A stretch of DNA of 64,000 nucleotides from a virus (IMGVR_UViG_3300013093_000001:1-64000), one strand, 5' to 3'; positions 9,055-64,000 are shown, counted from the stretch's first letter. Notes: a model not told the origin generated them from the letters alone. Made by a program: numbers and translations.

Positions 9055-9098
9055 CGTAGAGCCGGTAGTTTCAAATAATAAATTGTATCGGAGCGGCT

Positions 9099-9479: not shown

Positions 9480-10588
9480 GTAACGTCATCAATTTTGCCG
9501 GTACCCCGGTCGTTGCCTCAGGTAACAGCAGCGCCACGGTCGGCAGGGTCATTGCAACGGAGGCGGCTGTTGAGTTTCCGCAGCTGTCGTTAGGGTTGCA
9601 GGGGGTTGGTACCAAAATCATCTACCTGGACCCGTTGGGCAATATTCATAACCTGGCTGGCGGTTATGCTGGGCTTGAGGGCTGCCGGATTGCGACACAG
9701 GTGTATGGCGACCAGCAGTGGCCGTTCACGCAGGTCATGGTCAACAGCCCCTACATTATGGGGTCTTTAATCCAACGTCAGAACATTCCGGAGCGTAAGT
9801 TCAACTTCAGTATCATCATCGGCGGCAACCCGCCCATGACGGAATACCAGTACCGGTTGGCTGAGGACTATTGGTGGTCCGGCCAGGATGAGTCGAATGA
9901 CGGCTGGATGGGTATTTACACCCGTTACTCTGGTTGGCGGTGGATTCCCGTCCGGCCGGAAGAGCCAACTAAGACGCCGCAGACGATGGACAACACCGCG
10001 TGGGGTAATAACGTGTCCCGGTGGGACATCACCTGGGTGGCGCAACGCCCGTATTTCACTAAACCGGCTAGGGCGGCAACTTTCCAATCAGCACAGTCAG
10101 GGAGCTACCAGGCTGCGCCTGCGAATTTGGCGACGGGTGTGACACCAGGGTTGCAGCATTTGGCTTACTTCTGGGGTAATTTGCCGCTGGCTAACGCGGG
10201 AGATTTGCCGAGTTATGTCACCTACTACGTTTCCTCTCCCGGTCAAGCTGTCGTGCAGGATAATTCCTCTGGCCGGTTGGTACCGTTGCCGGGAACGGTG
10301 TCGAGCGTCGGGACGTTTATGTGTGATACGGAACCTGGGCACCGTACTTTGACCGCCGCCAACGACCCCACCAGCAATCTAGTCTTCGATCTTGTACGAC
10401 AGTCAACTGTGCTCAATTACTTCCTTGCCGCCGCCACTAGCGGCAGTAAGCCCCTGCAATTGCAGTTTCAAAACAGGTTCATATACGCCATACCGCCGCG
10501 TTCAGAGGTGACGTTGACGGTGGGGCACAGCGACCCGAATGGAGTTGTTGTGGCGGCTGTCCCGCAGCGGTATAAGAGGAGTCGCTGA
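9476..10588 (+). CDS. Minor tail protein (distal tail/Dit-like)
   Basis: First large gene after the tape measure; GWRW..VR, PYF, N.GD.P motifs of actinophage Dit-like proteins. Confidence 0.78.
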   Translation: MSNVINFAGTPVVASGNSSATVGRVIATEAAVEFPQLSLGLQGVGTKIIYLDPLGNIHNLAGGYAGLEGCRIATQVYGDQQWPFTQVMVNSPYIMGSLIQRQNIPERKFNFSIIIGGNPPMTEYQYRLAEDYWWSGQDESNDGWMGIYTRYSGWRWIPVRPEEPTKTPQTMDNTAWGNNVSRWDITWVAQRPYFTKPARAATFQSAQSGSYQAAPANLATGVTPGLQHLAYFWGNLPLANAGDLPSYVTYYVSSPGQAVVQDNSSGRLVPLPGTVSSVGTFMCDTEPGHRTLTAANDPTSNLVFDLVRQSTVLNYFLAAATSGSKPLQLQFQNRFIYAIPPRSEVTLTVGHSDPNGVVVAAVPQRYKRSR

Positions 10589-12534
10589 TGCCGCAGTTCC
10601 TCGACACCCTGGGGGTCATCCCCACGACTTCTCCCATCCAATTCGGCGCTGGTCCTGACTCGTTTTTGCAGACACCGGGGTCCAACGGCTCTGTACCGTC
10701 CCTGCTCAGTCAACCAGCGCAGGCCGCCAATTACCTCAATGGGGTCAGGCAAACAGCTATACAAGGCGCTGGCCTGGTACCGCTGGTCAGGATCGGTGAC
10801 GGCAACCTTAGCAGCCTGTGGGAACTTGATGGGATCATCAAAAGCGAGGCAGAGGAGCTGCTAGAGGACAGCGGAAAGCTCATTGTGACCGTTGCCTGGG
10901 AGAACTGGATTCAAGACCTGCTGGTTAATGAAACTTTGCTGGTAGAAGATTTGCACATTATTGTGGACTGGGATCGGACCAACCCGAATTGGCGCACCCG
11001 GTGGGGTGGCAAAATTGTTGAAGTTCACATTAAGCAAGACGGAGATGGTAAGCACACCATCGAGTTGTCGGCTTTACACCACAGGGAACACGCGAAGCAT
11101 TTGCTGGTTGCCGCCAACCCGATTTTCCCGCCGGAGATACAACTGCCGCGCATGTGGGTGATGCCCGGTCCTTGCCGTACTATTTTGGCGACGACGGCGC
11201 TCATTAACCTGGGTCGGCTTTTCGTTCCCGGTTGGTCCGGGATTGCCAGTGGTTTGGACCCCGCAGGGTGGCTCAATCCGCTTAACCCTGACGCGGTGCT
11301 AAACCTGCTGCCAACTGAGTGGCCGATACAGGTGGCGTTTGTGGACCCGGTACTCGACCAGTCTCGGTGGACATGTATTGGGACGACGTGGCAGAACTGG
11401 CACGATTCGTTCAAGGATTTACTGAGTGACAGTGGTGTCGCGATGAAGGCGTACACCTACTTGACCACTGACGCTGACAGCCCTAACACGGAGTTAGTAG
11501 ACCTCGTCCAACTCATACCTGAATTGTTGGCGCAGATTCCGGGTATTTCCGTTGCGGGACTTGAAGCTGGGTTAGCTCGACTCTGTTCTCCGCAACGCAA
11601 CTGCGTGGTTTTTGCTTTTGAAGACGTGAGCGGGGTGACGGGGCCGACTGGGACGATTGCTGACGGTTTGCTGTCCACCGTCGCCGTCACCTTAGATGAC
11701 TTAATCACTCCGGTGTTGGTTAACGTCAAAACAGGTGACACCTATGATGCTGCCGGTGTCCTCAACGGACTTAGCGTTGAGGACTCTTCAGGTCTGGGGC
11801 AGACGTATCTGCTGGAGCAACTGCTGAATGTGGCCGTACCGCCGCCGAAGGTTATTTGGTGGGACGGGACTTTCAACGGCAGGTTGTCAGCTAACGTCAC
11901 CTATCACAAAGGTTCCCCCAAAACGATTATGACCGGGGGTAAGAGTCCAGTAATTATTAATGAAGCGCAAACCTTTGCCATTAAATACGGGCTCAGTCAA
12001 CTGCAAACTGTCATCACGGACGGTTTCATCCAAGAGTTTGGTGGTGCACCACAGGGTGCGGGACTCGACAATCTCTACCAGGGTCAGCTGGACAACGTAT
12101 TGTTTGCGTGGGAGCGTTTCACAGACCCGATGCGTGCTTTATATGCTGGCGATTTGGCGTGGCAGGAGCATTTTGAGCGTGGCAGTGGCGCGGCTTACAC
12201 GCTGGCTTCTGTGTTGACTTTGCGGAGCGGCAACTGGAAGACGAGGCCGTTCGCCGGTTTTGATGTCAGTACCTTGAACTGTTTCCCCTGGATTTATGGT
12301 GTTGACTACACGCTGGGTGACCGGGTGGGTTTTGAGCAGGACGGTGTCATCTACGTTGATAACATTTACACAGTAAAACATACTTGGGAGTGGGAAAAGC
12401 CGCTGACCATAGTCAATCGTATCGGTGAGGATAAGAAAAAAGCTGATCCGTTTGGGGCTGCCTTCAAAACCATCGCCACCCTCTACACTTTCATCAGCCA
12501 GCTGGCTGGTGAGGGTACTATCTTCCAAGGGTAA
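10588..12534 (+). CDS. Minor tail protein (baseplate hub, Gp37-like family)
   Basis: RWGG, ANP.FPPEIQLPRMW, GGKSP..IN, DY.LGDRVGFE motifs typical of the conserved mycobacteriophage minor tail protein. Confidence 0.85.
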   Translation: MPQFLDTLGVIPTTSPIQFGAGPDSFLQTPGSNGSVPSLLSQPAQAANYLNGVRQTAIQGAGLVPLVRIGDGNLSSLWELDGIIKSEAEELLEDSGKLIVTVAWENWIQDLLVNETLLVEDLHIIVDWDRTNPNWRTRWGGKIVEVHIKQDGDGKHTIELSALHHREHAKHLLVAANPIFPPEIQLPRMWVMPGPCRTILATTALINLGRLFVPGWSGIASGLDPAGWLNPLNPDAVLNLLPTEWPIQVAFVDPVLDQSRWTCIGTTWQNWHDSFKDLLSDSGVAMKAYTYLTTDADSPNTELVDLVQLIPELLAQIPGISVAGLEAGLARLCSPQRNCVVFAFEDVSGVTGPTGTIADGLLSTVAVTLDDLITPVLVNVKTGDTYDAAGVLNGLSVEDSSGLGQTYLLEQLLNVAVPPPKVIWWDGTFNGRLSANVTYHKGSPKTIMTGGKSPVIINEAQTFAIKYGLSQLQTVITDGFIQEFGGAPQGAGLDNLYQGQLDNVLFAWERFTDPMRALYAGDLAWQEHFERGSGAAYTLASVLTLRSGNWKTRPFAGFDVSTLNCFPWIYGVDYTLGDRVGFEQDGVIYVDNIYTVKHTWEWEKPLTIVNRIGEDKKKADPFGAAFKTIATLYTFISQLAGEGTIFQG

Positions 12535-23226: not shown

Positions 23227-23314
23227 ACTTTAAGTATACCGGAGTGGCAATAAAGGGTGGTAGTGTGGGGTTGTGGTCGGCAAAGGGTCGGCCAGTGGAA
23301 AGGCTGGTTTAGCA

Positions 23315-24098: not shown

Positions 24099-24710
24099 AT
24101 GAGTGGCATCAAATTCGTCGGACAGCAGGATGTTCCCGTAGACGACCTCAAGCCGCATCCTGATAATCCGAACCGTGGCAGTGTGGACGACCTACAAACC
24201 TCGCTGGAGCAGTTTGGACAGTTCAGGTCCATCGTCGCCACCAAGGATTTGACTATTCTCGCTGGTCACCACCTGTGGCAAGCGGCTAAGGAGTTGGGTT
24301 ACAAGACCATGCGGGTGGATATTTTGGATGTTGACGACAAAACGGGTCGTAAAATCATGCTGGCCGACAACAGGCTGGCCGATCTGGGTATGGGACCGGA
24401 CCTGGACTTGCTGCTTAAAAACCTGGAAGAGCTTCATGGTGACATCGCAGGGACCGGTTTTGATGAGGAATACCTGCGGATGCTGGAAGATGCCATCCAG
24501 GGTCCACCCGACCTTGAGGAATTGGAGCGGGAGGTCGACGAAAAGCCACCAAGCCCCACGGACTTCTTCAAGCGCATCACCCTACTGGTAGACCCTAGAG
24601 AGCAGACAAGGTGGGAGCGGCACCGCGCTATGTTCCCCGACGACAATGAGGCTTTCCGGTATCTACTGGTCAAGAACGTTCAGGATTCGGAAGCAGGGGA
24701 CGACGGCTAG
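24099..24710 (+). CDS. ParB-like nuclease domain protein
   Basis: LKPHPDNPNRG...SLEQFGQ...ILAGHH...AAKELG...LADNR. Confidence 0.88.
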   Translation: MSGIKFVGQQDVPVDDLKPHPDNPNRGSVDDLQTSLEQFGQFRSIVATKDLTILAGHHLWQAAKELGYKTMRVDILDVDDKTGRKIMLADNRLADLGMGPDLDLLLKNLEELHGDIAGTGFDEEYLRMLEDAIQGPPDLEELEREVDEKPPSPTDFFKRITLLVDPREQTRWERHRAMFPDDNEAFRYLLVKNVQDSEAGDDG

Positions 24711-25745
24711 GTGGGTAAACCGAGCGTCCGCGGGAGGTCAACGATCCCGCCACCGAAAAATGTCCTGTGCTCTTTTTTTTACTACAAAAAAGCGGATATG
24801 GAAAAGATAGCGCCCTGCCGCGTGATCGCGGATTCAGGAGCGTTCTCAGCTAAGCAAAATACGGAAACTTACCAGTTTGGTAACGCCGTCACTACGAAGG
24901 CGTTGGTTGCCTGGACCAAGAAGTGGGAACATTTGCTGTGCTGGGTGGCGTGTATTGACGTTGCGAGTGCTGAGCAAACGAAAATAAATTGGGATCGGAT
25001 GTGTCAGAGCGGTTTGCAGGCTGTTTCTACTCTGCATGTTGGTGACCATCCCAGTACGATGGACTGGTATGCGGAACGCGGGGTAGACTTTCTCGGTTTG
25101 GGTGGTATGGCGGGGAGTTATATTTCCGATAACGCTAAGATGCGCTGGATGATTGACTGCTTCAAATATGCGCGGGAAAACCACCCCGACATGCGCTTTC
25201 ATGGTTGGGGTATCACGCACGCGAAATTCCTGCGGTTACCGTTCTTTTCAGTGGATTCTTCCGGCTGGGGCAGTAGCTATCGGTATGGCCGCATTTCTTT
25301 GCGGAACCCGCTGACGGGAGAAACGCTGCCGTGCGTACTGGACGGTAAGTCTATCTATGACGCTAAGAACAAAAAACTCCGAGAGTTACTGATAGAGCAT
25401 TACGGTGTCAGTCCTAGCGAGATTGCTAAGGCTGGTCCCGCTAACCGGGTGTTGTTAGTCAAGCTATCTGCCTTGTCGGCCTCTGTGCAGGAACAGGAGT
25501 GGCGTAAGACGTTTCGAAAGCAACCCATTTACCCACCCTCTTGGGGCAGACTCAAAGGTTGGACGTTGGGTGACGGTCCTAATCAGCATTTGGCTTTAAG
25601 TGGTTGCGGCGCGGGGATCAGGGAGCGTAAAGCCTTCGCTGAATTCGACTATGGTCCACATATGCACCTGGTTGACGGATTTCCACCCCACTTGCGGGTG
25701 GTGGCTGAATTGAATGGCGCAGAACACCCCGAGGAGCTTGTATGA
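24711..25745 (+). CDS. dpdA: DpdA-like (TGT-fold) DNA 7-deazaguanine transglycosylase
   Basis: DSGAFS, GLGGM, FHGWG and SVDSSGW motifs; directly upstream of queD-queE-folE. Confidence 0.72.
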   Translation: MGKPSVRGRSTIPPPKNVLCSFFYYKKADMEKIAPCRVIADSGAFSAKQNTETYQFGNAVTTKALVAWTKKWEHLLCWVACIDVASAEQTKINWDRMCQSGLQAVSTLHVGDHPSTMDWYAERGVDFLGLGGMAGSYISDNAKMRWMIDCFKYARENHPDMRFHGWGITHAKFLRLPFFSVDSSGWGSSYRYGRISLRNPLTGETLPCVLDGKSIYDAKNKKLRELLIEHYGVSPSEIAKAGPANRVLLVKLSALSASVQEQEWRKTFRKQPIYPPSWGRLKGWTLGDGPNQHLALSGCGAGIRERKAFAEFDYGPHMHLVDGFPPHLRVVAELNGAEHPEELV

Positions 25746-26164
25746 GTACAATTTCTGTGAGAACGCACTTTGCCGCTGGTCACAGGATTTTAGGTTTGGT
25801 CGGCGCTGGCGCTAAGTGTAGGAACATACATGGTCACACCTTCCATGTGACATGGACGTTTGAGCAGAGCAAAGACAACTTCAGCCTGGAGTTCGGTACG
25901 CTCAAGCAGGCGTTGCGCGGCGTCATCAAGGACAATTTCGATCACTCTTTCATCGTTGACCAGGATGACCCGTTTTCGGAATACCTGCGGTTGGAGAGTC
26001 TGAAGCACTACGTTTTGGCCGGTAAACCGACGACTGAGGCCATTGCGGAGGAGATTGCCAACCTGTCTGCCGCTAGCCTTAAAGCGGTGACCAAGCATGT
26101 TGTGATGCGCCGGGTGGCGTTGGAAGAAGGACCGAACAATGTGGCGACGTGGGAAGATGACTAG
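25742..26164 (+). CDS. queD: 6-carboxy-5,6,7,8-tetrahydropterin synthase
   Basis: F.AGHR...C.NIHGH.F...FDH...PT.E motifs. Confidence 0.93.
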   Translation: MSTISVRTHFAAGHRILGLVGAGAKCRNIHGHTFHVTWTFEQSKDNFSLEFGTLKQALRGVIKDNFDHSFIVDQDDPFSEYLRLESLKHYVLAGKPTTEAIAEEIANLSAASLKAVTKHVVMRRVALEEGPNNVATWEDD

Positions 26165-26856
26165 TGCTGTCGCTCTCGGAGGTCTTTGTCAGTCACCAGG
26201 GTGAGGGTCCGCGCTCTGGCAGACTGTGTACGTTCATCAGGCTCGGTGGTTGTAATTTGTCTTGTTCCTGGTGTGACACCCCCTATACCTGGGACGCTAA
26301 GCGCTTTGATTTGCGGCAGGAATTGAAAAGGGTCAAAGCTGAGGACATTATGGCGCTTGTTCCCGGTGACGTTGATGAGGTTGTCATTACTGGTGGTGAG
26401 CCGCTGATGCACCAAAAGACAGCCGACTGGGAGATGCTTTTACGGTTACTGAACCGCGCCGACAAGTACATATGCGTGGAAACTAATGGAACGATTGCGC
26501 CTACGCCGGTCACGCAAACCTACGTCCGACACTACTCAATTTCTCCTAAGCTCCCTAACGCGGGTACCCACAAGAAAGGCCAGAGTCCGGTCATGGCGGT
26601 GTGGCCTAACAGGCTGCGGCATGACGGAACCTGCCTGAAATTCGTGGTTAAAGACGAGTCAGAGGTTAGAGTAGCTGCCGAATTGGCTGACAGTTTGGGT
26701 TGGCAGCGCCGTAACGTGTGGATGATGCCGGAAGGAAGATTTAAGGAATTCCTCCTCGACAGGTGGCCGGAGATTTGTGATGAAGCTAAGGCGCAGCGCG
26801 TCAATGTGACGATGCGCCTGCATGTCCTGGCCTACGGTGACACAAGAGGGACGTAA
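26164..26856 (+). CDS. queE: 7-carboxy-7-deazaguanine synthase (radical SAM)
   Basis: EVF.S.QGEG...FIRLGGCNLSCSWCDT, ITGGEP, VETNGT, SPK, RLH. Confidence 0.95.
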   Translation: MLSLSEVFVSHQGEGPRSGRLCTFIRLGGCNLSCSWCDTPYTWDAKRFDLRQELKRVKAEDIMALVPGDVDEVVITGGEPLMHQKTADWEMLLRLLNRADKYICVETNGTIAPTPVTQTYVRHYSISPKLPNAGTHKKGQSPVMAVWPNRLRHDGTCLKFVVKDESEVRVAAELADSLGWQRRNVWMMPEGRFKEFLLDRWPEICDEAKAQRVNVTMRLHVLAYGDTRGT

Positions 26857-27419
26857 TGGACAAGGTTGAGGCGGCGGTCACCGACCTACTGGCCGCGCTG
26901 GGATTTCCTGCTGACGAGCATTTACGGGACACGCCCCGCAGGGTTGCTCGCGCTTGGCGGGACCAAACGTGGGGCTATGAGGAGGAGCCGGGTCACCACC
27001 TACGCAGAACATTCCCAGCGCCGGACGACGCGGGACTCATTGTTCAGGCTGGTATCGACGTGCAGAGCATCTGCGCTCATCATTTGCTGCCGTTCGGGGG
27101 CCGCGCCACCGTTGCGTACAGGCCCCGGCCGGGTGCACCCATCGTCGGGTTGTCTAAGCTGGCGCGTTTGGTCTACGGGTATGCTGCGCGGCTGCAAGTA
27201 CAGGAGCGGATTGGGAATCAAGTGACGGCGGCGTTAATGGACGAATTGAATCCAGTCGGCGCGGTTTGTCTAATAACGGCTAGCCATGACTGCATGAGAT
27301 TGCGCGGCGTGAGAAGTCCCAGGACAGAGACTACGACAGAATCGGTCGGCGGGTTACTCGCAATCAGCGACATCAACTTGGCTCGGCAGCTGCATGTGCA
27401 GGGAGCCACGCTGCTGTGA
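26856..27419 (+). CDS. folE: GTP cyclohydrolase I
   Basis: DTPRRVARA, SICAHHLLPF.G, GLSKLARLV...RLQVQER, H.CM..RGV. Confidence 0.95.
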   Translation: MDKVEAAVTDLLAALGFPADEHLRDTPRRVARAWRDQTWGYEEEPGHHLRRTFPAPDDAGLIVQAGIDVQSICAHHLLPFGGRATVAYRPRPGAPIVGLSKLARLVYGYAARLQVQERIGNQVTAALMDELNPVGAVCLITASHDCMRLRGVRSPRTETTTESVGGLLAISDINLARQLHVQGATLL

Positions 27420-41673: not shown

Positions 41674-42020
41674 CTAAACCGCCGCCCCCACCTTAAGCTG
41701 GAACAACGAGAATTTAGGGTTAGAAACCAGCGGCAGGTGATCCGCACACGTCGCGTATGTGTTGGCAACAGTGATTGCAGGGATGCGTGAGCCGGTCCTG
41801 ACAAAACACACAGCACAAGCGATGTAGTTGTCTGCGACAGCACAGGTCATGTAATTTTCTGCGGCGGTTTTCTTCACCCCGACAGTATGACACCTTTTAA
41901 CGCGACAAGATGCGCCGCTGGCAGTGTGTCCAATACACACGCCAACCCGGTAGCGAAGCCGGTGGACCGGGGTTACCCTGTTGTTATACGGCAAACCGCC
42001 GTGGTCGGAAAGGGGTAACA

Positions 42021-46036: not shown

Positions 46037-46209
46037 AACTAACTCCTACCTGTCGTCAGCGACCCTTTGCCGCCGTACACCACTATTTTAGCTTGCCGGG
46101 TGTTGGTTCACCATAGCCAAATCCCACTTGTTAACCGAGAGTCCAACGCGGCGTCCGTTGAACGTCAGTCCCATCAGCTATGCTGAGTCTGACTGGGAGG
46201 AAAGAACAC

Positions 46210-51847: not shown

Positions 51848-52858
51848 ATGTTCGAACCACCGGAAATAATTTCTGAGCAACTCTACGCTGGACCGGGTGC
51901 TGCTCCGATGTTGACGGCGGCGGCAGGCTGGCAGGGCACTGCGAACAACCTAGCTGGTACAGGTCAAGACTTCGCTCGTATTATCTCCCAAATCCCCTGG
52001 TCGGGACCAAGTTCAGAATCGATGCGCGCAACGGCAGCGTCTTACGCGACGTGGCTATTCGCGACAGCGGAACAAGCCGCGCAGACCGCTGCCTTGGCGC
52101 ACGCCGCCGCAACGGCCTATGAATTAGCACGCGCGACCGCCATACCACCGGAAGCTGTGACATGTAACAGAATGCAACTGGCAATACTGACGGCAACCAA
52201 CATCCTCGGCATGAACTCCGTTGCTATCGCAGCCACAGAATCCCAGTACGCAGAGATGTGGACACAAGATATAGCCGCTATGACAGCCTACAGCGCAACA
52301 TCTGCTGAGCTAACGAGCGCATTACCGAATTGGACTACGCCCCCCGCCGCAACGGCTCCACCATCAGCACCTGCTATTTGGACTTATTTACTCGGAGGTC
52401 AAACAATCCCACAGCTGTTTTGGACTACTTTCCAAGCCAATCTGAGCAGCGGACCATTTTCTTTACCGCTGCAACTCCTCAGCCTGTTTACAGTGCTATG
52501 GGCCACCGGCAGTCCCGACAGCCCTATCAATCAAATACTGGGGCTGGCCCAGAATCCGGTCATTGCGCCGCCAACATACCTAGCAGAGCCGTTGGCGACA
52601 GCGCCAACACCTCAAATACGCGCCAACATGGGCAGCGGCAATACTCTGGGACCGCTGCGGGTGCCTCCGACATGGGCACAACCGCCTAAGCAACTAGTTC
52701 CCCGACCCATTACCGTCAACACAGTGGGATCGGAACTAGAACCCTACCCGTTGGGACTGCCGATACTGACAGGTAGCGGCGGTACGACCACGCGGAAACC
52801 GTTACCCGAATACGGCAAGAGCTCGACCGTGATGGTCAAACACCCATATGGCGGCTAG
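51848..52858 (+). CDS. PPE family protein (SVP-like C-terminus)
   Basis: PPEIIS..LYAGPG..PM..AA.GW, WSGPSS, IPPE.V..NR, TNILG.N..AIA.TE.QY.EMW.QD..AM..Y; LGPLRVPPTW. Confidence 0.92.
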   Translation: MFEPPEIISEQLYAGPGAAPMLTAAAGWQGTANNLAGTGQDFARIISQIPWSGPSSESMRATAASYATWLFATAEQAAQTAALAHAAATAYELARATAIPPEAVTCNRMQLAILTATNILGMNSVAIAATESQYAEMWTQDIAAMTAYSATSAELTSALPNWTTPPAATAPPSAPAIWTYLLGGQTIPQLFWTTFQANLSSGPFSLPLQLLSLFTVLWATGSPDSPINQILGLAQNPVIAPPTYLAEPLATAPTPQIRANMGSGNTLGPLRVPPTWAQPPKQLVPRPITVNTVGSELEPYPLGLPILTGSGGTTTRKPLPEYGKSSTVMVKHPYGG

Positions 52859-54268
52859 GACTGTCGAATTGTTGGAGTAGAACTCAAATCACGCCGACAG
52901 TCGAGGAAGTTTCGCAAAGCTATGTGCATAACTTCTGACAGCTGCCACCCCTCGCTGGACTCACAGAAAGCCTGAACTATATTTTCTTCGCTGTTCGCCC
53001 AACCATCCTCATGGTCATTGTAAATGCCAACACACCAGCCCATCGGTTTACCAAACCATTCCAAACCTAACCGCGACCGCAGTGAGTGGCAATCTGGGTC
53101 CGTGGCAACTATCCAATGGCCGCTCTCTAAGCGGCCCTCTAAGGCATAGCAACCACCACCTGTATGCACTTCATGCAATAAAATACCCAGGTCAAGCCTT
53201 ACTTTCCACAGGATGATCGCGGCATGGGCACCTGACGATTTTCCAATCTCATGCTCATAGTCTGAGAACGGCGGGTCGGTTGGTTTCATAAAAATACCCA
53301 TTACACGTCCCGTCTGAAGCTGTAGGCATCATAGGGCTTTCGGCCACACCACACGTCCGTCAGAGCTTGTGTGACGTTAAGGCCAGTTGCTTCGTCAATG
53401 GCCTGCCACTCAACGATGCAACGCGGTTCTCCATCAAGACCCAGCAGAACAGACTCCACCGGTTCCATAAGTGTCATGCGGAGTCGGTTATACCACCACG
53501 ACTTTTGCATCGTCAGGCGCATGAACCGCAAACCGTCATCAACACTGGCAAAAACGATGTTCCCGTTCGGCGTCATGTCAGGACTACCAGGGTAGTGTGC
53601 ACCACCTTGACAGGAGAACTGCGTTGCAATGCCAGACCGCCACACGGCGTCCAGCAGATCAACCATGCCTTCGTCAACATGGCCGTTGCTCGTCAATACT
53701 TGCTTATGAATACTCACTATCCTCCTTATCTGGGTCGGCCTCTGCCGACCGCGCACCCAGGCCAGGTAATGAACCTGACCTGGGCCTTCTTTCAGTTGTG
53801 GTAGTCGACGTGCACCAGCCACGTTGACGGGTCGAGCGAAGCCAGGAATTTCAAAAACTGCTCTTCAAATTCCGGTCCGCGTTCCCAGTCACCAATCACG
53901 GTTGACCCGCTACCCTCTGGGCCAAGCCACTTCGTGTGCCACACGCAATCAAGGTCCAGGTAACTGTAGACGTAGTCTATCGACTCTGCTACAAGGTCAC
54001 CGACGCGTGCACAGTCGGTAGCGCCAGCTTCCGCGACTTCATCGGGGAAACCGAAACTGCTGGGCTCAGACGGCAGACCGCTAACACAGTCGGGTTTCAA
54101 CCGCCACTCACCACCCCACCTGCCGCCAACAACCCACCAGTCCCATTCAGGATCACCTTCTGGGTCACATGAATCGTAGCCATACCGGGACATGCGTAGT
54201 TCCAACTCGGACCGCAAGTTATCCGGCTCAACATCTCCCGGTATGGCGACAACATGGCTATAGTGCAT
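52855..54268 (-). CDS. Three hypothetical genes (52855..53301, 53301..53822, 53792..54268)
   Basis: Coupled leftward ORFs; the last has WDWWVVGGRW and a terminal VDYH motif. Confidence 0.6.
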
Positions 54269-54668
54269 TAGCCGCCACCTCATCTGTCACCGTGGACGCT
54301 GGGTATTTCGGCGCGAGTTGGTCCCGCAGGAACACCCAAATCCGGTCAGGCAGGCTGGTGGTTTCTCCCTGATCGTCGTGCGACGTCAGGGCAACAGGAC
54401 CGCAAATCACGTCCTGGTTACGCATCTCAGGGCATAAACCCCACCACAACGCTGTCGCTGGCTCATTAACCGGCAAGCCTTGCAGTTTGCCTTCTTCGTT
54501 ACACCACATGTCCAGTTCGTCTGTCACCCGAACCAGTTCAATGTAGCCACCGACAACACCCTGTAGGAATCCCAAACTGGTGGCTTCGTCACCTGACGAC
54601 ACCCGCCGAAATTCGTACAGACCACCAGAGTCCTGGTCGATAATGGCCGCTTTGTAACCTGTATTCAT
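54258..54668 (-). CDS. DUF3846-like protein
   Basis: LQ.VVGGYIE.V.....MWCNEEGK..GLPVN..AT...I.GP. Confidence 0.8.
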   Translation of the reverse strand: MNTGYKAAIIDQDSGGLYEFRRVSSGDEATSLGFLQGVVGGYIELVRVTDELDMWCNEEGKLQGLPVNEPATALWWGLCPEMRNQDVICGPVALTSHDDQGETTSLPDRIWVFLRDQLAPKYPASTVTDEVAANAL

Positions 54669-54743
54669 CTTTCCTCCTGTCGGGTCTGACCTCGTGTCAG
54701 ACCTCGTGTCGCGGCAAGGTAGTGAGCCTTGCCGGGACGAACT

Positions 54744-57700
54744 TTACGCTGGCGTGTCTGGGCCAAACATAGAGCGCAAGTAATTGAGCTCTTCTTTTTT
54801 GAGCTCACTGACATAGCGCAACTCGCCGCAGTGTTCGCAACTATGCGGGTGGTCATTGCCACCGTCGCATGAGCCACACACCCAATCGTCATACGTCAAT
54901 CTACTGCTACCTGCCTCTCTTGGTCACATTGAACTTGCCAGCCTTCAAGCGGTCTACTAATTCTCCCAATGCCGCCTCAAAACCGTCCGCGAAGGCGCTC
55001 GCTTCGTTTTGGTCCAGGTTTTTTCGTCTTTGCACAGCCACATGGGAGAGTGTTCCAGTTGGTCACGGACCCCGGCGACTGCTTCTTGACACCACTCCTC
55101 AACCGCGTGCTCGTCAAACTCCATTGTTGCCTTCCTATAAATTGGTCCTGGCCTGTGCCAATACTCGCGTCCCGGTAAGGTAATAAGCCTTACCGGGACT
55201 GTACTAATAATTAGTACGCTTCACCACACCGGCAACCACAGTTACGACGTTATCGGTTCTCCGCGTTGTTCGCCGCGTGCATTGTCCCAGGTATACATCA
55301 TGACATCGAGTGCATTAATGAACCTGACGTACATCTCCGATCCTGTCGGAAGGTAGCGCGGTATAGTTGCGCGTTGATCCCGACCGGTTACGGTTTCCGT
55401 CAAATGCACGTCCACTTGTATGCCGTCGTAGTCAATGCTGACCCTGATCGTCACGACCTAGACTCCCGCTGCATTATACGAATTTCGTCACGGATAACTG
55501 GGTGCCAAAAACTGTTAATTTCCGTTCCTGGTGTCCAATTTTGACGTGCCCACGACCGAAATTCTGCTTCTTCCTCCGGGGTCAAGTCACGGAAAATGCT
55601 CTCAAACTGACCCGACTTGCTGTTGCGGATCATTAAATTCCCCTCCGCATAGTCAAAACATGCGCTGCATGAGCTAAATTAATCCAAGCGTCAGCAAGTT
55701 GTATCTGACAATTGACTGTCAGTCTCTGACCTAGCGGACCATTCTCCACCGCAGTGAGTATTTTTTCTGCTTTCCGCAGGTACTCAACGGTTTCCATTCC
55801 TCCTCCAATCACCTTGGCCGGTTGCCAAGGACAGCGCCTGGGCGGGGCACTGAACCCCACCCAGGCTTCCTCAATCTTTGTAAATCTTGGACCCCAATGC
55901 TTCTTCGGTCGCAATGACCAAATTCTGCATTGTAGTCAACTCCTGCTCCGTGGTTTCCGCCGCCATTGGCATCATCTCAACCCGGTACTCGACAATTTCG
56001 TCAAAACCAGCTTCTAGGTGGTCGTCAACGATTTTGGCAGCAGTAGCCGCTGTCATGCCGGGGTTATTCTCTCGCAGTTGCTGGATAAGTTCGCTGCGAC
56101 TGCCTCGGTAAACTCGGCTCTGGCCTTCCGGCCTCTTGCCGTCAGTCATTTTGGCCGTCAACGTCGATATACAGCGTCCTGCTTGCACCCGGTCCTGTTT
56201 CAACGGTAATAGAAGCGTGGTCACCGTCAAAAACGATTTCAGCACTCCTGACTGCTTCCAACGACCGCTGCTTCACCGCCGCATACTTTGCGTCATGCGC
56301 CGCAAGACTCGCCGCCAAAGGACTTCTGTCTGTCAGGAATCCTGGGACTCGTTCTGACTGCAACCACTTGACCAAACCACTGACAAATTCTCGTGGTAAG
56401 GAAACCGTTGCTTCTGGCGCCTGCTCTACCATTGTGCCAAGCAGCGCATGGGGCCGGTTATTGACGACGGCAAGCATGACATCCAATGCCGGGTTAAGCT
56501 GCTCCAGCGGTAACTCCACGTCCCAGTCCAGACGGTCGAATGCCTGATCGGCTAGTTCGACAGCCCTATTTCGCACGGACTGCAACACGTCAGCAGTATT
56601 AGTATCTGCCATGTTTAACTTCTCCTCTAATCTAGTGCAGGTCGGCTCTTTGCCGACCTCGTACCGGGTGCCGGTACGACCCGACACCCGGCCTCTTTTT
56701 ACGCTACAGCCTCAACGCGGTGGGTGTAAAAACACCCATTCTTCCCGCAGTCCACTTCCTGCTGCACAAGCGACCACATTGCGTCCCACACGCCGAATAG
56801 CAAATCATAATCGGACGGACGACGACCCAAACCGAAATCGTCTTCCGGCTTCATAAACATTGCTATGATCTCGCGTAGCGCCGCTGTCACAATGTCCTTC
56901 GCTGCGTCACACCAAACGAAATTCACGTCTGCCGGGTCGAAGCCCCGGTACCACGACCTCGGTCCCGGCGCTGGCTCTAAACCAGCGTTGGACCGCTCAA
57001 TTTGAGCGGCCCTGTACGCCTTCGTGTCGTGGCAGTCGCAGTAATTCCTGTCAGACGCGACAATCTCATCACTGGCAAGTAACTGCCAAATACTGAGATG
57101 GACACCGGCAAGCAACTCGCTGTCACTGGTCCTGCTGTGCAGGTCCGTGGCATACAAGTCCACGACCTCACGCAAAGCATCCTTCAGGATATCCGTGGCA
57201 TCTTCACACCACAGATAGTCGTCTGACTTTTTGTCGTCTTGGTACTCCCAAGCCATACTTTTCTCCTCCACTATGGGAACCGGCCTTTGCCAGTCCCTCG
57301 TACCCCGGCCGGATTTGACACCGACCGGGGCTGACCTACTACCTACCCTGCGGGAACTCTTCCTGAATCAAAGCGGTGATAAACGCTTTGTGGTCAGCCA
57401 GGGCTTTATTCAGCGCAACGATCACGCCATACACCGCTTGTCGCTCTCGCCAGTCCTGCATCTGCTCCTCGTAGTATTGTCCAGCGGTGACCGTGGAAGC
57501 AGGCAAACGGAACTGTTTGTCCTCACTAAGCGAGTTTAGTATCGCGTTAGGGTCGTCCGGCTTCTGGGGTTGCGGTTCGTTGCCAACAACAGGAGAAAAA
57601 CCCCAGTATTGTGCTTCCAGATGATCGATCAGACCTGTCAGAAATTGCTGCGTTATCGGGAAGCCGTCTTCTCCTGCTGGCTGATCATCCGTCAACACAA

Positions 57701-57803
57701 CGTCGGCAGCCTGCTTCAGCGCTAGCTTCAACGTGCTGCCAGGTACTTCCAAGACGTAATGATCACACGCCTCGTCAATCCGACGCTGCAATTCTGTTGT
57801 CAT
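54744..57803 (-). CDS. Small hypothetical genes (54744..54899, ~54907..55124, 55242..55454, 55451..55633, 55633..55797, 55871..~56148, 56142..56612, 56699..57256, 57339..57803)
   Basis: Starts refined to the ATG/TTG following each RBS; no function recognised. Confidence 0.6.
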
Positions 57804-57878
57804 CTTTCCTCCAATCTGACCCGACCCTTTGCCGGGTTCGTACCCCGGTCAGGCTCGACCCTGACCGGGGCTGGGCAG

Positions 57879-58736
57879 CTAGCTGACCTTCCTGGTCGGC
57901 GCTGCTCGCTTAGCTGGCGCTTTCTTAGGCGCAGCCTTCTTAGCTGGTGTCTTACCAGCCGGATGCCGCTTGACGGACGCTTCCAGCTGCGCCATCAAGT
58001 CGGACACGTCGTCGTCGCGCTGGTCCAGATCAACGACGCTGGTCAACACGCCACCCTTAGCTTTCGTGTCAATCAACGCCGCGACCTGCGCGGTGTAGGT
58101 GTCAACGAAGTTGGCGGGACTAAAGTCCTCAATCATGCTGTCAACGACTGCGTGCGCCATTTCCAGCATTTTGGGTGACTCAATGGTCCCGTTTAAATGC
58201 TGCAAACCATTAGCGTCACGGATTTCGTCCAGCCAAATCAGGGTGTGCATGACCAACACGTTGCCAAGGACGCGGATGACAGCCATTTGCTGTCGTGTTC
58301 GCAACACAAACTTTGCGACCGCAACAACATCTGACTCCACCATGACCCGACGCAACAGCGCGTAACCTTGAGAGCTGTTGTCTGTGGGTTCCAAAAAGTA
58401 ACTGGACTCCCACATAATCGGGTCAATCTCGTCACTGTGACAAAACTGGACCACCTCAATGGCCGACAACTTATTGGCTTCCTGCAACTGCGCCAGGTCG
58501 TCATCGGTAATAACGACAATCTTGTCGTCATCAACCAGCTTGCCTTTAATGACTTCGTCAGACCGTGGGTTGACGCCACACTTCTTACACACGCGGGGCT
58601 GACCAATCGCACCCTCGCAACCTGCATGGAACAGGTTAAACGAGATGTCATGGCTGTCCGTTGCCTTGTAGAGTTTGACACCCACATTCACTAAACCGAA
58701 GTTCAGTGACGTGTTTTTCACTGATCTCATACCCAT
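57879..58736 (-). CDS. ku: Ku DNA end-binding protein
   Basis: SLNFGLVNV.VKLY.AT, I.V.QF...EIDP....SYFL.P, GYALLR, F.DTY, DV.DLMA.LEASV, basic PAKKA tail. Confidence 0.95.
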   Translation of the reverse strand: MGMRSVKNTSLNFGLVNVGVKLYKATDSHDISFNLFHAGCEGAIGQPRVCKKCGVNPRSDEVIKGKLVDDDKIVVITDDDLAQLQEANKLSAIEVVQFCHSDEIDPIMWESSYFLEPTDNSSQGYALLRRVMVESDVVAVAKFVLRTRQQMAVIRVLGNVLVMHTLIWLDEIRDANGLQHLNGTIESPKMLEMAHAVVDSMIEDFSPANFVDTYTAQVAALIDTKAKGGVLTSVVDLDQRDDDVSDLMAQLEASVKRHPAGKTPAKKAAPKKAPAKRAAPTRKVS

Positions 58737-58897
58737 GTTTTCCTCCTCCACGGCGACCCTTTGCCACCGCTTATTTATTTTAGCCAGACAACTGGCTACT
58801 CACCACCCGGTGGTGGCGAAATCTATGACCCCTCCAGGTAAAATCTCCTCAATACAGGGGAGGTGTAACGACCCGTCAGGTTCGCTACACCCCCTCC

Positions 58898-61800
58898 CTA
58901 CTCAGGGTGGTAAATGCCGTGCATTTCGTCTAGGCATTTGTCGCAGTGCTTGACGTAAGACGGCTTTCCGTCAACTAGCCAAAACTCTGTACCATAAATC
59001 TGGTTTGGCAATATCTGCCTCACGCATGTACTACAGGCATGGCTCTTCCTTGCTCGGCGGTACCGGGTCTCACCTAGCTGTAATTCATCAATCCAGTCAA
59101 CTTCTTCTGGATCATCCCTGTAGCCAGCGTAGATGCTAGCCACAATGCCACCGCAGCATTTGAGAATAGTTGACGCAACCCTCTGCGTAACCCTCGGTAT
59201 ACATTTCCGCTCTCTGCTGGTCGTATTGCCGCTCCGACTCCTTGTACTGCGCGAGCAGTTCAGGCGACAGACGTGACTCGTCAACAGTCAACAAAACTCG
59301 CTGACCATTGCACACAGAGCAAAGCGCATCATAGACACCCGACTTGTAATCCTGCCAAAAGTCGGGGTCTTGATCGTACATTTCATCCTGGGTCATACCG
59401 CCCTCCCAGCAATCATGCACACCGCGACCTTCACAACGCCAGCAGACCTCGTACTTGTCGGGCAAGTTGACGCTCGTCGGTCCGTCTTCGCTGTTTGCGT
59501 CGGTACCAAGCATCTGGTACTTCATGCTTCTCTCCTCCTAACCGGGCTGGCTTGTGCCAGCCTCGCACCCTGGCCGGGTTCGACCCCGGCCAGGGCTCGT
59601 CAGGCCAATCCCCTGACGTACAGGTAACCCTTCACCCGTTCGGCCAGCTCGTAAGCGGAATCGATGATATCCAATTCGTTGGACGAATTGTCATACCGCT
59701 CGTAAAACTGGTTCAGCGCAGCCACGACCGCCTTTGCGTCGTATTCTTGCCGCTCCTGCATAATCGGCAATGACTGCGGCGACCACCAGTGGCCGCTCAC
59801 ATACCCGGCTTGAAGTCGAAGTACACACGCGGGTTGTGCGTGAACTCCATGACACCTTCGACACGGTCCGACTTCCGTCGGACCATGACGTATGGAGCAG
59901 AGAAGCCAATGACTTCAAATTCTGCCTGTAACTGCTCGGTGTCCCACGTCTGTCCCTCTGGCTTGCGACCAGAGTCGTAGTTGTGGATTTCAATACCTGA
60001 CATTTTTCCTCCTCCACTTGGGTCGGCCTGGTGCCGACCTCGCGCCGTGGTTGAGTTCGACCCCAACCACGGCAATTCTTAGTCTCAAACCCGCAGCGTA
60101 ACAGCCTGCGGGTTCCTCAACCCAACCGCGAAGGTGTGGTCACCACCGACATCCGTATTACAATGACGGCAGTAGGTTGTAGCACCTACCACTGACAGCG
60201 CTGATCGCACCCAGGCGAAATGATCGCCAACACACGGCAGGCAAACAGCGCCTCCAGGTTGACCGCACTCCTGCATTGCAATATGCGTTGCTTCCCGTTT
60301 GCCACACAGGCCACACCGAATTACCCCGCCAGCTACCTCAGCTAACGAATAAATCTCCCTGAGAGTTTCGATATATGCTTCACCCGTTTTCTCGCTGAGA
60401 GACTCAAGTAATTCTGCTATTAATTCTTCTCCCATGTTTCCTCCTCCTTGTGGCTGGTTGTCAGCCCCGTGCGCTGGCCGGGTAATGAACCCGGCCAGGG
60501 CTGTGTCATAGCCGCGACAGGACACCGTTAATTAGTTCTGCCACCGCATCCAACGTCACGCCACCAGACAATTTTAGCTTCTCAGCAACATAATCAGCGC
60601 TGACCGGACTGTCGAAGGTGTATGCCCCGCAGGACTTGACTGCAACGAATACCTGCCTGTGGTTGACATAACTGATCGTATTGCTGCCACCGACGTCGCA
60701 AGGCGATGCAAACAAAATCCGCAGCGCAGTAGCCTGTCTATCCGTCCAAAGCAGAGCGACCGACCCGTAGTAATTCATATCGAACACCACGGCGTCGAAT
60801 GTACCGTCGCTGTTGACAACCTGATTGTATTCGTCAAGCGTGTACTGCCGCTCACCCATCACTCTGGTCCGTTCGCCCAAAAATCCAGCAACTCAAGAAT
60901 TCCGGTGAGGGCTTCGGCAATAGCTATCTGCGCGTGGTCCTGGCTAGTTGGACGCAAATCCGCACGCCCGTTTTTAGCCCAACCGATCCGCTCTCGCGCA
61001 TTTTTCAGGTGTTGATTCACTTTTCCTCCAATCTGGTCCGGCATTTGCCGGACTCGTACCCCGGCCAGGTTCGACCCTGGCCGGGGCGTGTCTAGCTCGC
61101 TATGACGCCGCTACCCTCGCAACGCAGGCAGGTCTGGTATCCCAGCGACTCGTGGTCGTAGTCAAACCATTGCGACCCTGGTTCAAGTTGCAGAAGCTTG
61201 CTGCGGTGCAATTCCTCGCTGTAGTTAAAGCCTTCGCCGCTGCAACCCGCGCAAGTGCGCTTGCCTGTCAACTGCAATTCCAGTTCGTAGACAATCGCCG
61301 CAACCTCACAGTTGCAAATATTGACGCTGTGATCGCAACCCAAATCGTCTGAGAGGTATTCAATCAACGACGCCACCAGCGCCTTGGGTACAGGTTGACT
61401 GTCACCCCGCTCTGGGTGTTTTTCCATCTCAGCGCGGTAGTCAGCGATCTCAGTTCTGCGCATCAATGTCCAAGACGGACGTTCGATGGGGTCACTGACC
61501 CGCAACGCCTCACTCAGCAGGACATTCTCAATTTCGACCCACTCAGTAGACATCTCTCCTCCTAACTGGGCTGGCCTCTTGCCAGCCTCGTACCCCGGCC
61601 AGGTTCGACCCTGACCGGGGCTATTTCAACGAACCGTGAACGACACGGTCATTCCGTCACTCCTACGGTCTATCCTGTCACGCAAACGCGACAGCGAAGC
61701 AAACAGGTGTGCGTGTGGGACTGCTGCAACACCGAACCGTTTGAAACCACCTGGATCGTCAAACTCATCTGCTAAAAACGACTCCGTGTAGTAGTCCTCT

Positions 61801-62667
61801 GCGTCTTCGTCAACGTAGCGCACAACTAATCTCCTCACAGGCAACGGACTCAACTCAGCCAGCAACGGCTCCCACAAGCATTGATCGGCAGTGAACGTCA
61901 CTTCGTTCTTCGGCCAGCCAAACGTGTCCCTCGGTCCTTCTGACACCCAAGACCAACCTAGCCCTACGGCCATAGTCCGTATGTTTGCTCGGTTTTTCTC
62001 TGCAATCTCGTACTCGTACTGCACAGTTTTTTCCTCCTCCTAACTGGTCTGGCTCATGCCAGACTCGTACCCGGTACAGGTTCGACCCTGTACCGGGCGC
62101 TACCGCTAAACCTTCTGCTTACGCGGCTCAAACTCGGTCACAATCGGTTGCGTAGCAGACCCATGATGTGTCCAGTGGTAGTACCCCATCTGGTCAACAC
62201 CAGTGAACTCTAAGGGTGGCGGGAACTCTACTAAAACATAGCCGTAACCCAACCGGGCACCTTGCTGCCGGAAGTTATGTTTGGCTTCCGACACGCTGCT
62301 GCCTCGACCCCAGCGGTTTTGACCCATCACAAGGAATGTGGACATTCTTTCCTCCAATCTGACCCGACCTCTTGCCGGGTTCGCGTCCTAGCCAGGTTCG
62401 ACCCTGACTAGGACTCCTTTATTAGTCTTGGGTACCGTAGCTACCCAACCTGCCACGCAATTCTTTCAGCGTGTCAATCTCCCGCGTCAACTGGTTGGCG
62501 TGTGCTTTGGCGACTTCCAGCGCCGCGTTCCCAACCGCTCGGGTGATGTGCCTGAGCGTGGCATTGATGTGGCTGATGTCAGTGGACTGCCGCAACCACA
62601 TCGCGTCCCGCAAGCAGCCATCCAACTCCAAAACCAAGTCGTTGATGGCGTCTTGTAAGTGCTCCAT
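58898..62667 (-). CDS. Small hypothetical genes (58898..~59143, 59136..59525, 59600..59800, 59797..60003, 60085..60435, 60506..60859, 60859..61020, 61092..61553, 61626..62024, 62106..62345, 62422..62667)
   Basis: Most begin directly after a repeat copy and a GGAGG RBS; several carry CxxC or CxxCxGxG motifs. Confidence 0.65.
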
Positions 62668-62740
62668 TTTCCTCCTTCTAACTGGCTGACTCTTTGTCAG
62701 CCTCGTACCCCGGCCAGTTCTGACACTGGCCGGGGCCACC

Positions 62741-63271
62741 TCACGCCGCAAATGCGTCGTACCACACCTTCCGCTTGTCACCACAGCAAGGGCCATAAAA
62801 CCACCCACGCCTATTAACTCTAAGCCGGTGCGCTGTCACGTTACCGTGACAGTAGAAGCAATGCGGGACCAGCTTACCGTCAGCTATCGTAAACTCTAGC
62901 TGCTGCCTCGGCTTATTGTTCCAGCCAACAAAGAACCTAAAAATTCTCAGGTGACTGGTATGACGCATCAAATGCAATGACCTTGCTAGCCTCGCTAACC
63001 GCAGCAGGGCTAAACCACCACCTGCCACGGGCAGTAACGCTGCCACAATGACACAAGCATCAAACACGTTCCAAAAAGACCGGAAGAAAAGCCTGGTAAA
63101 CGCGACACGAAGAGCCAGTTCACACGCAAAGAACAGCAAAACAGCGTTGTCCAGCCGCTCAAGTAATTCAGCGTTCGTGTCATCTACAAGGCTCCACGCC
63201 ACCAGACCAAGGTTGGTTAGAATTGCGACCATCACTACCCGGTCTAGCGGGGAAGACCTGTTGTGCGACAT
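62741..63271 (-). CDS. Voltage-sensor-domain (Ion_trans S1-S4) protein without pore
   Basis: F..E..LR (S2), FFRS.WNVFD..VI (S3), LRLARLAR.L.L.R (S4); no pore helices follow. Confidence 0.8.
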   Translation of the reverse strand: MSHNRSSPLDRVVMVAILTNLGLVAWSLVDDTNAELLERLDNAVLLFFACELALRVAFTRLFFRSFWNVFDACVIVAALLPVAGGGLALLRLARLARSLHLMRHTSHLRIFRFFVGWNNKPRQQLEFTIADGKLVPHCFYCHGNVTAHRLRVNRRGWFYGPCCGDKRKVWYDAFAA

Positions 63272-63327
63272 TTCTCATAAACCTCCTCCTAACATCCCCG
63301 ACCCTGTGTCGGGGAAATCTGTGTGGG

Positions 63328-63444
63328 GAGGCGGCGGCGCAGGTACTGCGCCCGAGCCATGTAACCGGGCAAGGCAATCCTTGCTTCCATTGCCACCAAA
63401 AATGAATGAAAACGGTGGGATGGTGAGTTTAACGCCGCCGCCTC
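63328..63444 (-). ncRNA. Putative structured RNA, three-way junction, copy 1 of a tandem pair
   Basis: 12-bp closing stem GAGGCGGCGGCG/CGCCGCCGCCUC; junction sequences conserved with copy 2. Confidence 0.65.
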
Positions 63445-63477
63445 AAGCCTCAAAAAGTTTGTGTGGAAAGGTGGTGG

Positions 63478-63598
63478 GGGGGCGGCGGCGCAGGTACTAC
63501 ACGCCCCGTAGTAAAAGGGCGCTTATTGGTAGTCCTTACTTTCCAATTTCCCACCAGCAAGGAACGAGAAATTGGTTGAGCTTAACGCCGCCGCCTCC
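63478..63598 (-). ncRNA. Putative structured RNA, three-way junction, copy 2 of a tandem pair
   Basis: Same architecture as copy 1 with different but pairing P2/P3 sequences. Confidence 0.65.
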
Positions 63599-63601
63599 AG
63601 C

Positions 63602-63844
63602 CTATGCTGACCGCCGTGAAGCGGCCATCGTTCGTACCTTGCTGACCACCCAGCGGGTGAATTTTACAAGATAACGAACTGCTGTGACCAAGAACCACGC
63701 GAGGCAAGCGAAAATCAGCAGTTCAGACAACTTGCGATTCTTTCGCATAACGCTCAGTATCACTTCTCCAGCGATTAGCTGGACCGCGTTACTGCTCAGG
63801 TGCTTCGTCAGTTCTTCAAACTGGTTTGGTCGTTCAAGCAACAC
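63602..63844 (-). CDS. Small hypothetical membrane protein
   Basis: GTG start after GGAGGAAAG and a repeat copy; one hydrophobic segment. Confidence 0.55.
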   Translation of the reverse strand: MLLERPNQFEELTKHLSSNAVQLIAGEVILSVMRKNRKLSELLIFACLAWFLVTAVRYLVKFTRWVVSKVRTMAASRRSA

Positions 63845-64000
63845 CTTTCCTCCTCTCCTAAGCTGGCCTTATGCCAGCTTCGTGTCCAGCACGACTTCGA
63901 CATCGTGCTGGACTTCCTTACTTGCGGTGACCGTGACCGGCGATGTTGTAATGACCGATATCACCACTTGATGTACCGGGTTGGTCGCTGCGGAACACGG

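Follow-up and report, generated by a model that had tools for sequence, protein, structure and literature searches.

A leftward gene array in IMGVR_UViG_3300013093_000001, an uncultured, mycobacteriophage-like virus, poses the question of how phages give separate, useful expression levels to long series of tiny, unrelated genes. The stretch analysed here (the window, positions 1-64000) opens an IMG/VR viral contig of 113,905 bp, which carries direct terminal repeats and is rated 100% complete. Most stop-to-start gaps of the array hold an element of two hairpins, hairpin 1 (H1) and hairpin 2 (H2), followed by the Shine-Dalgarno sequence (SD) of the next gene. From the window alone, the original prediction had described fifteen copies as a covarying RNA structure that cuts an early polycistronic transcript into single-gene units or controls each gene through one RNA-binding factor; the word 'early' was an assumption. 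The elements are read here, at about an even chance, as tRNA-type punctuation of the leftward polycistronic mRNA, in which H1 would mark the cut and H2 would be the 5' hairpin.

Copies, structure and strand of the intergenic element

Copies were detected with R1, a covariance model built from the 16 window copies (MAFFT seed alignment). It was used instead of a generic two-hairpin script, which was dropped after giving hundreds of chance matches; the first exact-pattern scan had returned a single chance match within a gene. Across the whole genome, R1 scored 44 copies at 35-90 bits (E 1e-23 to 5e-8), and a 45th (genome 64287-64359) was recovered at 33.9 bits with the filters off. The fifteen predicted copies were all present at their places on the minus strand, and the window holds one more beyond their range; the figure of fifteen is an artefact of where the window ends. 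The array spans 53.7 to 75.3 kb (~21 kb), with a sole outlier copy at 90.4 kb. All 45 copies lie on the minus strand (mRNA sense) and all are intergenic, and the plus-strand matches of R1 are palindromic echoes of H1 only (25 bits or less).

The module is ordered as stop codon, 2-10 nt, H1, linker, H2, 5-6 nt, GGAGG and start codon. The first of these spacings, from stop codon to H1, holds in most copies, and the second, from the end of H2 to GGAG or GAGG, in 29 of 41. The predicted placement between stop codon and ribosome-binding site was confirmed, as was the lack of an element at overlapping or coupled genes; among the junctions without an element, the Ku-like gene, with an upstream region and promoter of its own, is the exception. 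H1 is always 12 bp, with no gap in any pair in 44/44 copies of the genome and in 62/62 copies when other sources are included, and this fixed length suggests a ruler-type recognition. Its loop reads N-U-C-R-A-A (U 44/44, C 43/44, R 44/44; consensus GUCGAA), except that five copies have a 7-nt loop without A58. The linker after H1 is also conserved (R 44/44, C 44/44, G 41/44, A 39/44; consensus ACGA). H2 is variable, with a stem of 5, 7, 8 or 9 bp (mostly 7-9) and an A-rich loop of 3-6 nt.

In the 44-copy alignment, which was fitted to R1, pairing was kept in 98.2% of 824 cells, double-sided changes occurred in 16 of the 19 pairs, and 192 cells were compensatory. None of 500 shuffles reached any of the covariation measures, and only 23-47% of cells paired in the slid-partner controls. 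The seed alignment, made by MAFFT only, gave the same structure with compensatory changes in 15/19 pairs, and the 62 copies from seven sources were 97.5% paired with 318 compensatory cells. Single-copy folds had z-scores of -5.4 to -7.4 against shuffles. The covarying two-hairpin structure of the original prediction was thus upheld, and so was its observation that the mispairs point to the mRNA strand: G.U or U.G cells numbered 74 and A.C or C.A cells 6 (binomial p 5e-16; 49 and 6, respectively, with the basal pair removed), and the sense strand folded better in 40 of 45 copies (mean -37.7 versus -32.1 kcal/mol for the antisense). The G.U excess and the better sense folding therefore indicate selection on one strand, of mRNA polarity, as predicted for an RNA-level element and not for a plain DNA palindrome.

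The element could not be assigned to a described RNA family, as had been anticipated: across the genome, window included, Rfam 15 gave nothing at gathering score, and only chance-level matches at E<=5. The region had no megablast match among phage records, and no prior description of such phage elements was found in the literature searched, which covered few subscription journals. A tRNA gene was rejected as well, since no cloverleaf with an anticodon arm was seen, ARAGORN called 0 tRNA genes in the whole genome and RF00005 had no match. A CRISPR-like array was also considered and rejected.

For the spread of the element, a degenerate pattern scan was run and its matches were then scored with R1. 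Eighteen further copies were obtained on six other contigs (L120 six, L059 five, L098 four, and one each on L040, L101 and L021), all with an H1 of 12 bp, U-C-R in the loop and then R-C. The L021 copy is one H1 on a 92.9-kb uncultivated virus genome (UViG), and the other five contigs are metagenomic; most of the 118 metagenome pattern matches were chance, with real copies on these five contigs only, and the IMG/VR pattern matches L020, L022 and L023 were not true copies. L019, a relative by portal protein, retains an H1 remnant and an intact H2. The related UViGs from the portal-based search were structural-region fragments with a single remnant element, and a Ku-based search of IMG/VR gave no relatives. 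The reading frames beside the copies on the other contigs are mostly non-homologous to the array of this genome; conservation of the module thus does not depend on the genes it accompanies, and it serves any cargo. On L059, the copies at 2232-2303 and 2479-2546 match fully, as do the 15 nt of reading frame ahead of each, which suggests a recent tandem duplication of a cassette.

tRNA resemblance of H1 and reuse of H2 at promoters

A tRNA stacks its acceptor stem (7 bp) on its T stem (5 bp) to give 12 bp, and its T loop has U-C-R as an invariant core (TpsiC-R). Judged by its sequence, H1 appears to be a mimic of this acceptor/T-arm minihelix (~30-31 nt), the top half of a tRNA, and its R-C-G-A tail is one base off discriminator-C-C-A. 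Taken by themselves, these features of H1 are a resemblance only. The tRNA reading gains a concrete basis because the H1 geometry is joined by fuller tRNA mimics in Gordonia phages and by H2 in promoter-proximal positions.

Gordonia phage VanLee was reached via a weak blastn match. In its record (NC_073474), about 17 gaps of ~100 nt between small same-strand genes at 3100-12400 (+) hold a tRNA-like element, and phage Cafasso has the same type of element on the minus strand, in the same stop-to-SD slot. The order is an acceptor-like stem, a D-like insert of ~10 nt (for example GCTC-TGGT-GAGC), a T arm, R-C-G, a small hairpin, a leader and the SD. The T arm is canonical (GGTTCGAnTCC, with the 7-nt loop TTCGAnT), the T and acceptor-like stems total 12 bp in most VanLee and Cafasso copies, and the leader after the VanLee-type small hairpin is conserved as CACGGCACCCAACyGAAAGGAG. 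R1 matched the Gordonia elements at up to 27 bits, and one VanLee element was called a tRNA by ARAGORN; none of the VanLee and Cafasso elements is annotated in their records. By blastn the VanLee-type element is confined to VanLee, Cafasso, Aleemily and ObLaDi. VanLee also codes for a Ro-like RNA-binding protein.

In the mascRNA and MEN-beta RNAs, the end of a longer transcript folds into an acceptor stem, a T arm and a short D-like arm, and RNase P and RNase Z cut this part out. The mascRNA-menRNA model (RF01684) aligned to the Gordonia elements end to end apart from the anticodon arm, below its gathering score (E 0.05-0.7); the family is eukaryotic, and the window copies gave no match to the model. 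The H1 of the window may thus be seen as the most reduced form of a tRNA mimic occupying the same slot in related actinophages.

H2 also occurs without H1, at the sites listed in Table 1 and others. Six of nine stand-alone H2 sites, from both strands, have a TANNNT hexamer whose end lies 6-9 nt upstream (+23274, +41987, -46075, -58770, -88369 and -92649), and each of the six is then followed by an SD and a start codon. The background frequency is 4.5%, and the resulting P of 6e-7 is optimistic because the nine sites were chosen by eye from a list. If TANNNT is a -10 box, primary transcripts start at or just before H2, and H2 looks like the normal 5' end of the mRNAs of this phage. A sigma-70 promoter scan of 50-64 kb showed no excess.

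Upstream of the Ku-like gene, a distinct longer hairpin (58857-58898, minus; ~17 bp, -28.7 kcal/mol) stands directly after a stop codon, is followed by UGUAUUG, and precedes the TAAAAT hexamer and the stand-alone H2 of that gene. At this site one transcription unit seems to end, and another to begin, within the array.

Proposed punctuation and the competing explanations

We infer that the array is transcribed as one unit and cleaved between its genes. A host endonuclease that acts on tRNA precursors or on single-stranded R|C sites would cut within the four-base linker. It could be RNase Z, cutting just past the discriminator purine, or the RNase E of mycobacteria, cutting between R and C. Mycobacterial RNase E cuts immediately 5' of C at 88% of the mapped M. 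tuberculosis sites, with a weak preference for a preceding purine, at single-stranded sites that are over-represented between genes (PMC10641625). With its invariant R-C, the linker fits this enzyme and, equally, the cut spot of RNase Z after the discriminator. RNase P would perhaps cut 5' of G1 of H1. Every cistron would turn into a separate mRNA with H2 at its start and H1 at its end. Three bases from the new 5' end, H2 would shield the message against 5'-end-dependent RNase E/J and insulate the ribosome site, while H1 at the 3' end of the upstream message would block 3' exonucleases. A cut in the linker would also give the array mRNAs the same type of 5' end as the promoter-proximal mRNAs, namely three free bases and then H2.

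The prediction had offered a phage RNase or a single RNA-binding factor, and this part of it was not supported: no RNase (including RNase III), CCA-adding enzyme, Ro/TROVE protein, integrase or RNA-binding family was found among the 124 proteins scanned (76 non-array and 48 array), and the sole faint match to an RNA enzyme was RNA_ligase (E 7.6e-6). It would thus be host enzymes that do any processing. The single-gene cutting that it also proposed stands as the best reading, on the H1 geometry, the Gordonia mimics and the H2 5' hairpin. A further-reaching form, a bacterial-virus counterpart of mitochondrial tRNA punctuation, in which anticodon-less tRNA mimics are excised between all cistrons of the 21-kb transcript by host RNase P together with RNase Z or E, the 45 freed minihelices decoy or soak up host enzymes that process or damage tRNAs, and the module lets phages swap unrelated cassettes, is regarded as doubtful.

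Several observations weigh against the punctuation by tRNA-type cleavage. The H1 loop has 6 nt and the tRNA T loop 7 nt, the basal pair of H1 is often G.U, and the tail is RCGA instead of RCCA; C at position 74 partly inhibits some RNase Z enzymes. A purine precedes G1 in 39/44 copies, and bacterial RNase P prefers U there. RNase E would have little room on a 4-nt linker flanked by two stable helices. A folded non-template DNA strand would give the same G.T wobble asymmetry as a folded mRNA. Mycobacterium as the host is suggested by gene content only. To these points the selection of the H2 sites by eye, given above with its P value, should be added.

Among known systems, the closest are tRNA-like processing signals. 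The t-elements of plant mitochondria are tRNA-like folds beside coding regions, where RNase P and tRNase Z make mRNA ends (PMC1920247), and t-elements have been used likewise in Haloferax (PMC4946936). The present element is like t-elements and mitochondrial tRNA punctuation in that non-decoding tRNA-like folds stand at gene borders, with the host tRNA machinery proposed here as the processor. It is unlike t-elements in its size (a minihelix of ~30 nt), in its 6-nt loop and RCGA tail, in its link to a second hairpin and an SD and in its 45 copies in a bacterial virus, with a cleavage that is proposed. Synthetic acceptor/T-arm minihelices serve as model substrates for RNase P, RNase Z, the CCA-adding enzyme and synthetases. 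They share the 12-bp helix, the T-type loop and the discriminator with its tail, whereas the 6-nt loop, the RCGA tail and the common basal G.U set H1 apart, which is moreover natural, repeated and embedded in mRNA.

The early transcript of T7 carries the RNase III sites R1-R5, intercistronic hairpins which give stable single-gene mRNAs with terminal hairpins; there are five only, of ~20 bp or more and with an internal loop. Unlike these, the present helices are of 12 and 7-9 bp with 4 unpaired bases between them, the loop and tail are tRNA-like, and the phage has no RNase III. An RNase III processing site as in T7, which the prediction had named as a precedent that differs, found no support, since both helices fall below about two turns of double-stranded RNA. 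The SAS/ESAS repeats of Cluster K lie just upstream of many actinophage start codons and are conserved in sequence, whereas the stems here covary freely; the 13-nt SAS motif, taken as GGGATAGGAGCCC, had 0 matches in the window with up to 2 mismatches, in agreement with the distinction drawn originally.

Of the competing explanations, an uncleaved intercistronic stabiliser or insulator, whose hairpins would stop 3' exonucleases, deny loading of Rho and keep the SD unpaired, is possible, though we consider it rather unlikely. The hairpins are very stable (-37 to -44 kcal/mol), the intergenic gap is almost fully structured, the H2-SD spacing is fixed, and H2 is reused on promoter-proximal mRNAs. 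REP-type stabilisers are a precedent. In REP/BIME repeats and under the mimivirus 'hairpin rule', intergenic hairpins defined by structure affect the stability or the 3' ends of mRNAs across many genes. REPs, however, occur in both orientations without a fixed link to an SD, mimivirus hairpins are AT-rich and variable in length, and neither is tRNA-like; a REP- or MITE-like repeat was rejected because 45/45 copies share a strand and all are placed with a stop codon before them and an SD after them. A stabiliser needs no invariant length of 12 bp, no U-C-R loop and no R-C linker, and it leaves the fuller tRNA mimicry of the Gordonia elements unexplained.

An operator for one trans-acting regulator, through which a phage or host protein or a duplicated RNA would switch translation or decay of all cassettes, is improbable. 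A protein could recognise the conserved loop and linker. Two ~350-nt slots poor in open reading frames (ORFs) lie in the array on the minus strand (genome ~70.3-70.7 and ~75.4-75.7 kb). They are 85% identical with nine compensatory pairs, a normal element stands after each, and GAUUUCCUCUAACCUCCAAAC, which is complementary to the UUGGAGGAGGAAA leaders, is invariant in them; an RNA from these slots could pair with the UUGGAGGAGGAAA leaders through its conserved CCUCUAACCUCCAAAC. This anti-SD-like stretch is, however, partly paired in the predicted fold, no member of the protein families named above was found, and the element recurs on other contigs and in Gordonia phages with other gene sets. 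The slots are themselves candidates for a structured or regulatory RNA released by the same punctuation. A 5' alternative fold, with the 3' arm of H1 paired to the SD, was not seen on reading the copies.

A device at the DNA level, in which single-stranded DNA hairpins would be recombination sites (attC-like or PeSL-like) that move cassettes, or would be selfish repeats, is very improbable. Structure is conserved over sequence, a copy stands at the 3' end of small promoterless genes, the same element stands beside unrelated cargo on other contigs, an identical H1 is common to four copies, and integron attC sites likewise tolerate G.T on one strand. Against this, no tyrosine integrase (PF00589) was matched in the 100%-complete genome, the 30-nt hairpin is too small for attC (57-141 nt, two core-box pairs) and no attC-type core sites were seen on reading the copies. 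The element is furthermore fused in phase to the SD, H2 is reused at promoters, every copy is intergenic in a single orientation, and there are no duplicated cassettes. The original suggestion that the repeats promote cassette shuffling is therefore left with an indirect argument, the same element beside unrelated genes on other contigs, and lacks an integrase and paralogous cassettes.

Factor-independent or NusG-assisted terminators or attenuators after each gene can hardly be credited: a GC-rich hairpin does follow each stop codon, and terminators without a U-tract have been proposed for mycobacteria (PMC3993855), but the 8 nt past H1 hold a mean of 1.1 U (max 3) and those past H2 a mean of 1.8 (max 4), so that, for want of a U-tract, the element is not an intrinsic terminator. 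A terminator scan showed no excess and flagged none of the copies; the plain terminators that the original prediction set against itself were not found. Mycobacterial RNA polymerase is reported to require a U-tract for termination (PMC3993855). Moreover, 45 terminators in series would silence the distal genes, and the apparent unit end at 58857-58898 uses a different, longer hairpin.

Feature coordinates, cargo and significance

The positions of the window copies, the outlier and four stand-alone H2 sites are collected in Table 1.

Table 1. Element copies and stand-alone H2 hairpins with their R1 scores (window coordinates unless marked as genome).
Feature	Position	Strand	R1 score and remarks
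Element copy with H1 of 12 bp, loop GUCGAA, ACGA, H2 and SD	63845..63916	-	69.2 bits
Element copy	62669..62739	-	74.2 bits
Element copy	62346..62417	-	78.8 bits
Element copy	62031..62101	-	77.1 bits
Element copy, closest to consensus	61553..61624	-	89.8 bits; fold z -5.9
Element copy, example of the original prediction	61020..61090	-	82.8 bits; minimum free energy -43.6 kcal/mol, z -6.7
Element copy, 7-nt-loop variant (UUCAUUA) with a single C.C mispair	60435..60504	-	50.4 bits, filters off
Element copy	60005..60076	-	74 bits
Element copy	59529..59599	-	81.9 bits
Element copy, immediately past Ku-like gene	57803..57874	-	81.7 bits
Element copy	57260..57334	-	62.7 bits
Element copy	56624..56695	-	66.7 bits
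Element copy, 7-nt-loop variant	55796..55869	-	58.2 bits
Element copy, 7-nt-loop variant	55129..55202	-	59.8 bits
Element copy, 7-nt-loop variant	54668..54741	-	64.8 bits
16th window copy, last of the array, beyond the originally predicted range	53717..53788	-	70.1 bits
Lone copy outside array, upstream of 220-aa gene without Pfam match	genome 90371-90442	-	found by R1
Stand-alone H2, loop AAAGG, 6 nt past TAAAAT, abutting SD of Ku-like gene	58750..58770	-	
Stand-alone H2, loop AAAGG, 9 nt past TAAAAT, ahead of SD and ATG	46057..46075	-	
Stand-alone H2, loop AAAGG, 7 nt past TAGTGT	23274..23294	+	weak match, model positions 36-56
Stand-alone H2-like stem, loop AAACC, 7 nt past TACCCT	41987..42003	+	

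No paralogues were found among the 42 cassette genes tested, and the element is therefore the sole repeated part of the array. The Pfam matches of the cargo were DUF3846, an Ion_trans fragment, DUF732 and weak zinc fingers only, and nearly all other functions are unassigned. The Ion_trans match probably comes from the 176-aa gene at 62741-63271, in which an S4-like R-x-x-R voltage-sensor segment was noticed by reading. The leader of this gene (63296-63601, minus) contains two tandem structured repeats of ~120 nt (GAGGCGGCGGCG ... GUACCUGCGCCGCCGCC). The Ku-like gene (57879-58751) was identified by PHROGs and is nearest to Cluster J phages (36%); in the Cluster J phage Omega, whose Ku is 36% identical, the gaps were judged by annotation to be too short for elements.

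The tail proteins are nearest to those of mycobacteriophages (46% identity), a PPE-domain gene lies at 51848-52858 on the plus strand (PF00823, E 3e-49), and a DUF732 gene is in the array; PPE and DUF732 genes are typical of Mycobacterium. This gene content suggests Mycobacterium as the host. The genome also has genes for an ATP-dependent DNA ligase, RecE/RecT, methylases and HNH proteins. A set of 7-deazaguanine DNA-modification genes was observed at ~24100-27400 on the plus strand (a DpdA-like/queuine tRNA-ribosyltransferase at 24711-25745, QueC, a PTPS/QueD-type protein, QueE and GTP cyclohydrolase I).

If the host tRNA-processing or RNase E machinery cuts, caps and tails each message, a portable stop-to-start module would be a general answer to the question of how such runs of small genes are expressed. 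The element would then be a new class of phage RNA element, with 45 copies here, more on soil-type contigs and fuller mimics in cultured Gordonia phages. The idea is directly testable with VanLee and its host in culture, and in M. smegmatis with the knock-down tools for RNase E, P and J. The module is a possible insulator part for mycobacterial synthetic operons, and it bears on the real tRNA genes that are interspersed among the small genes of many actinophages.

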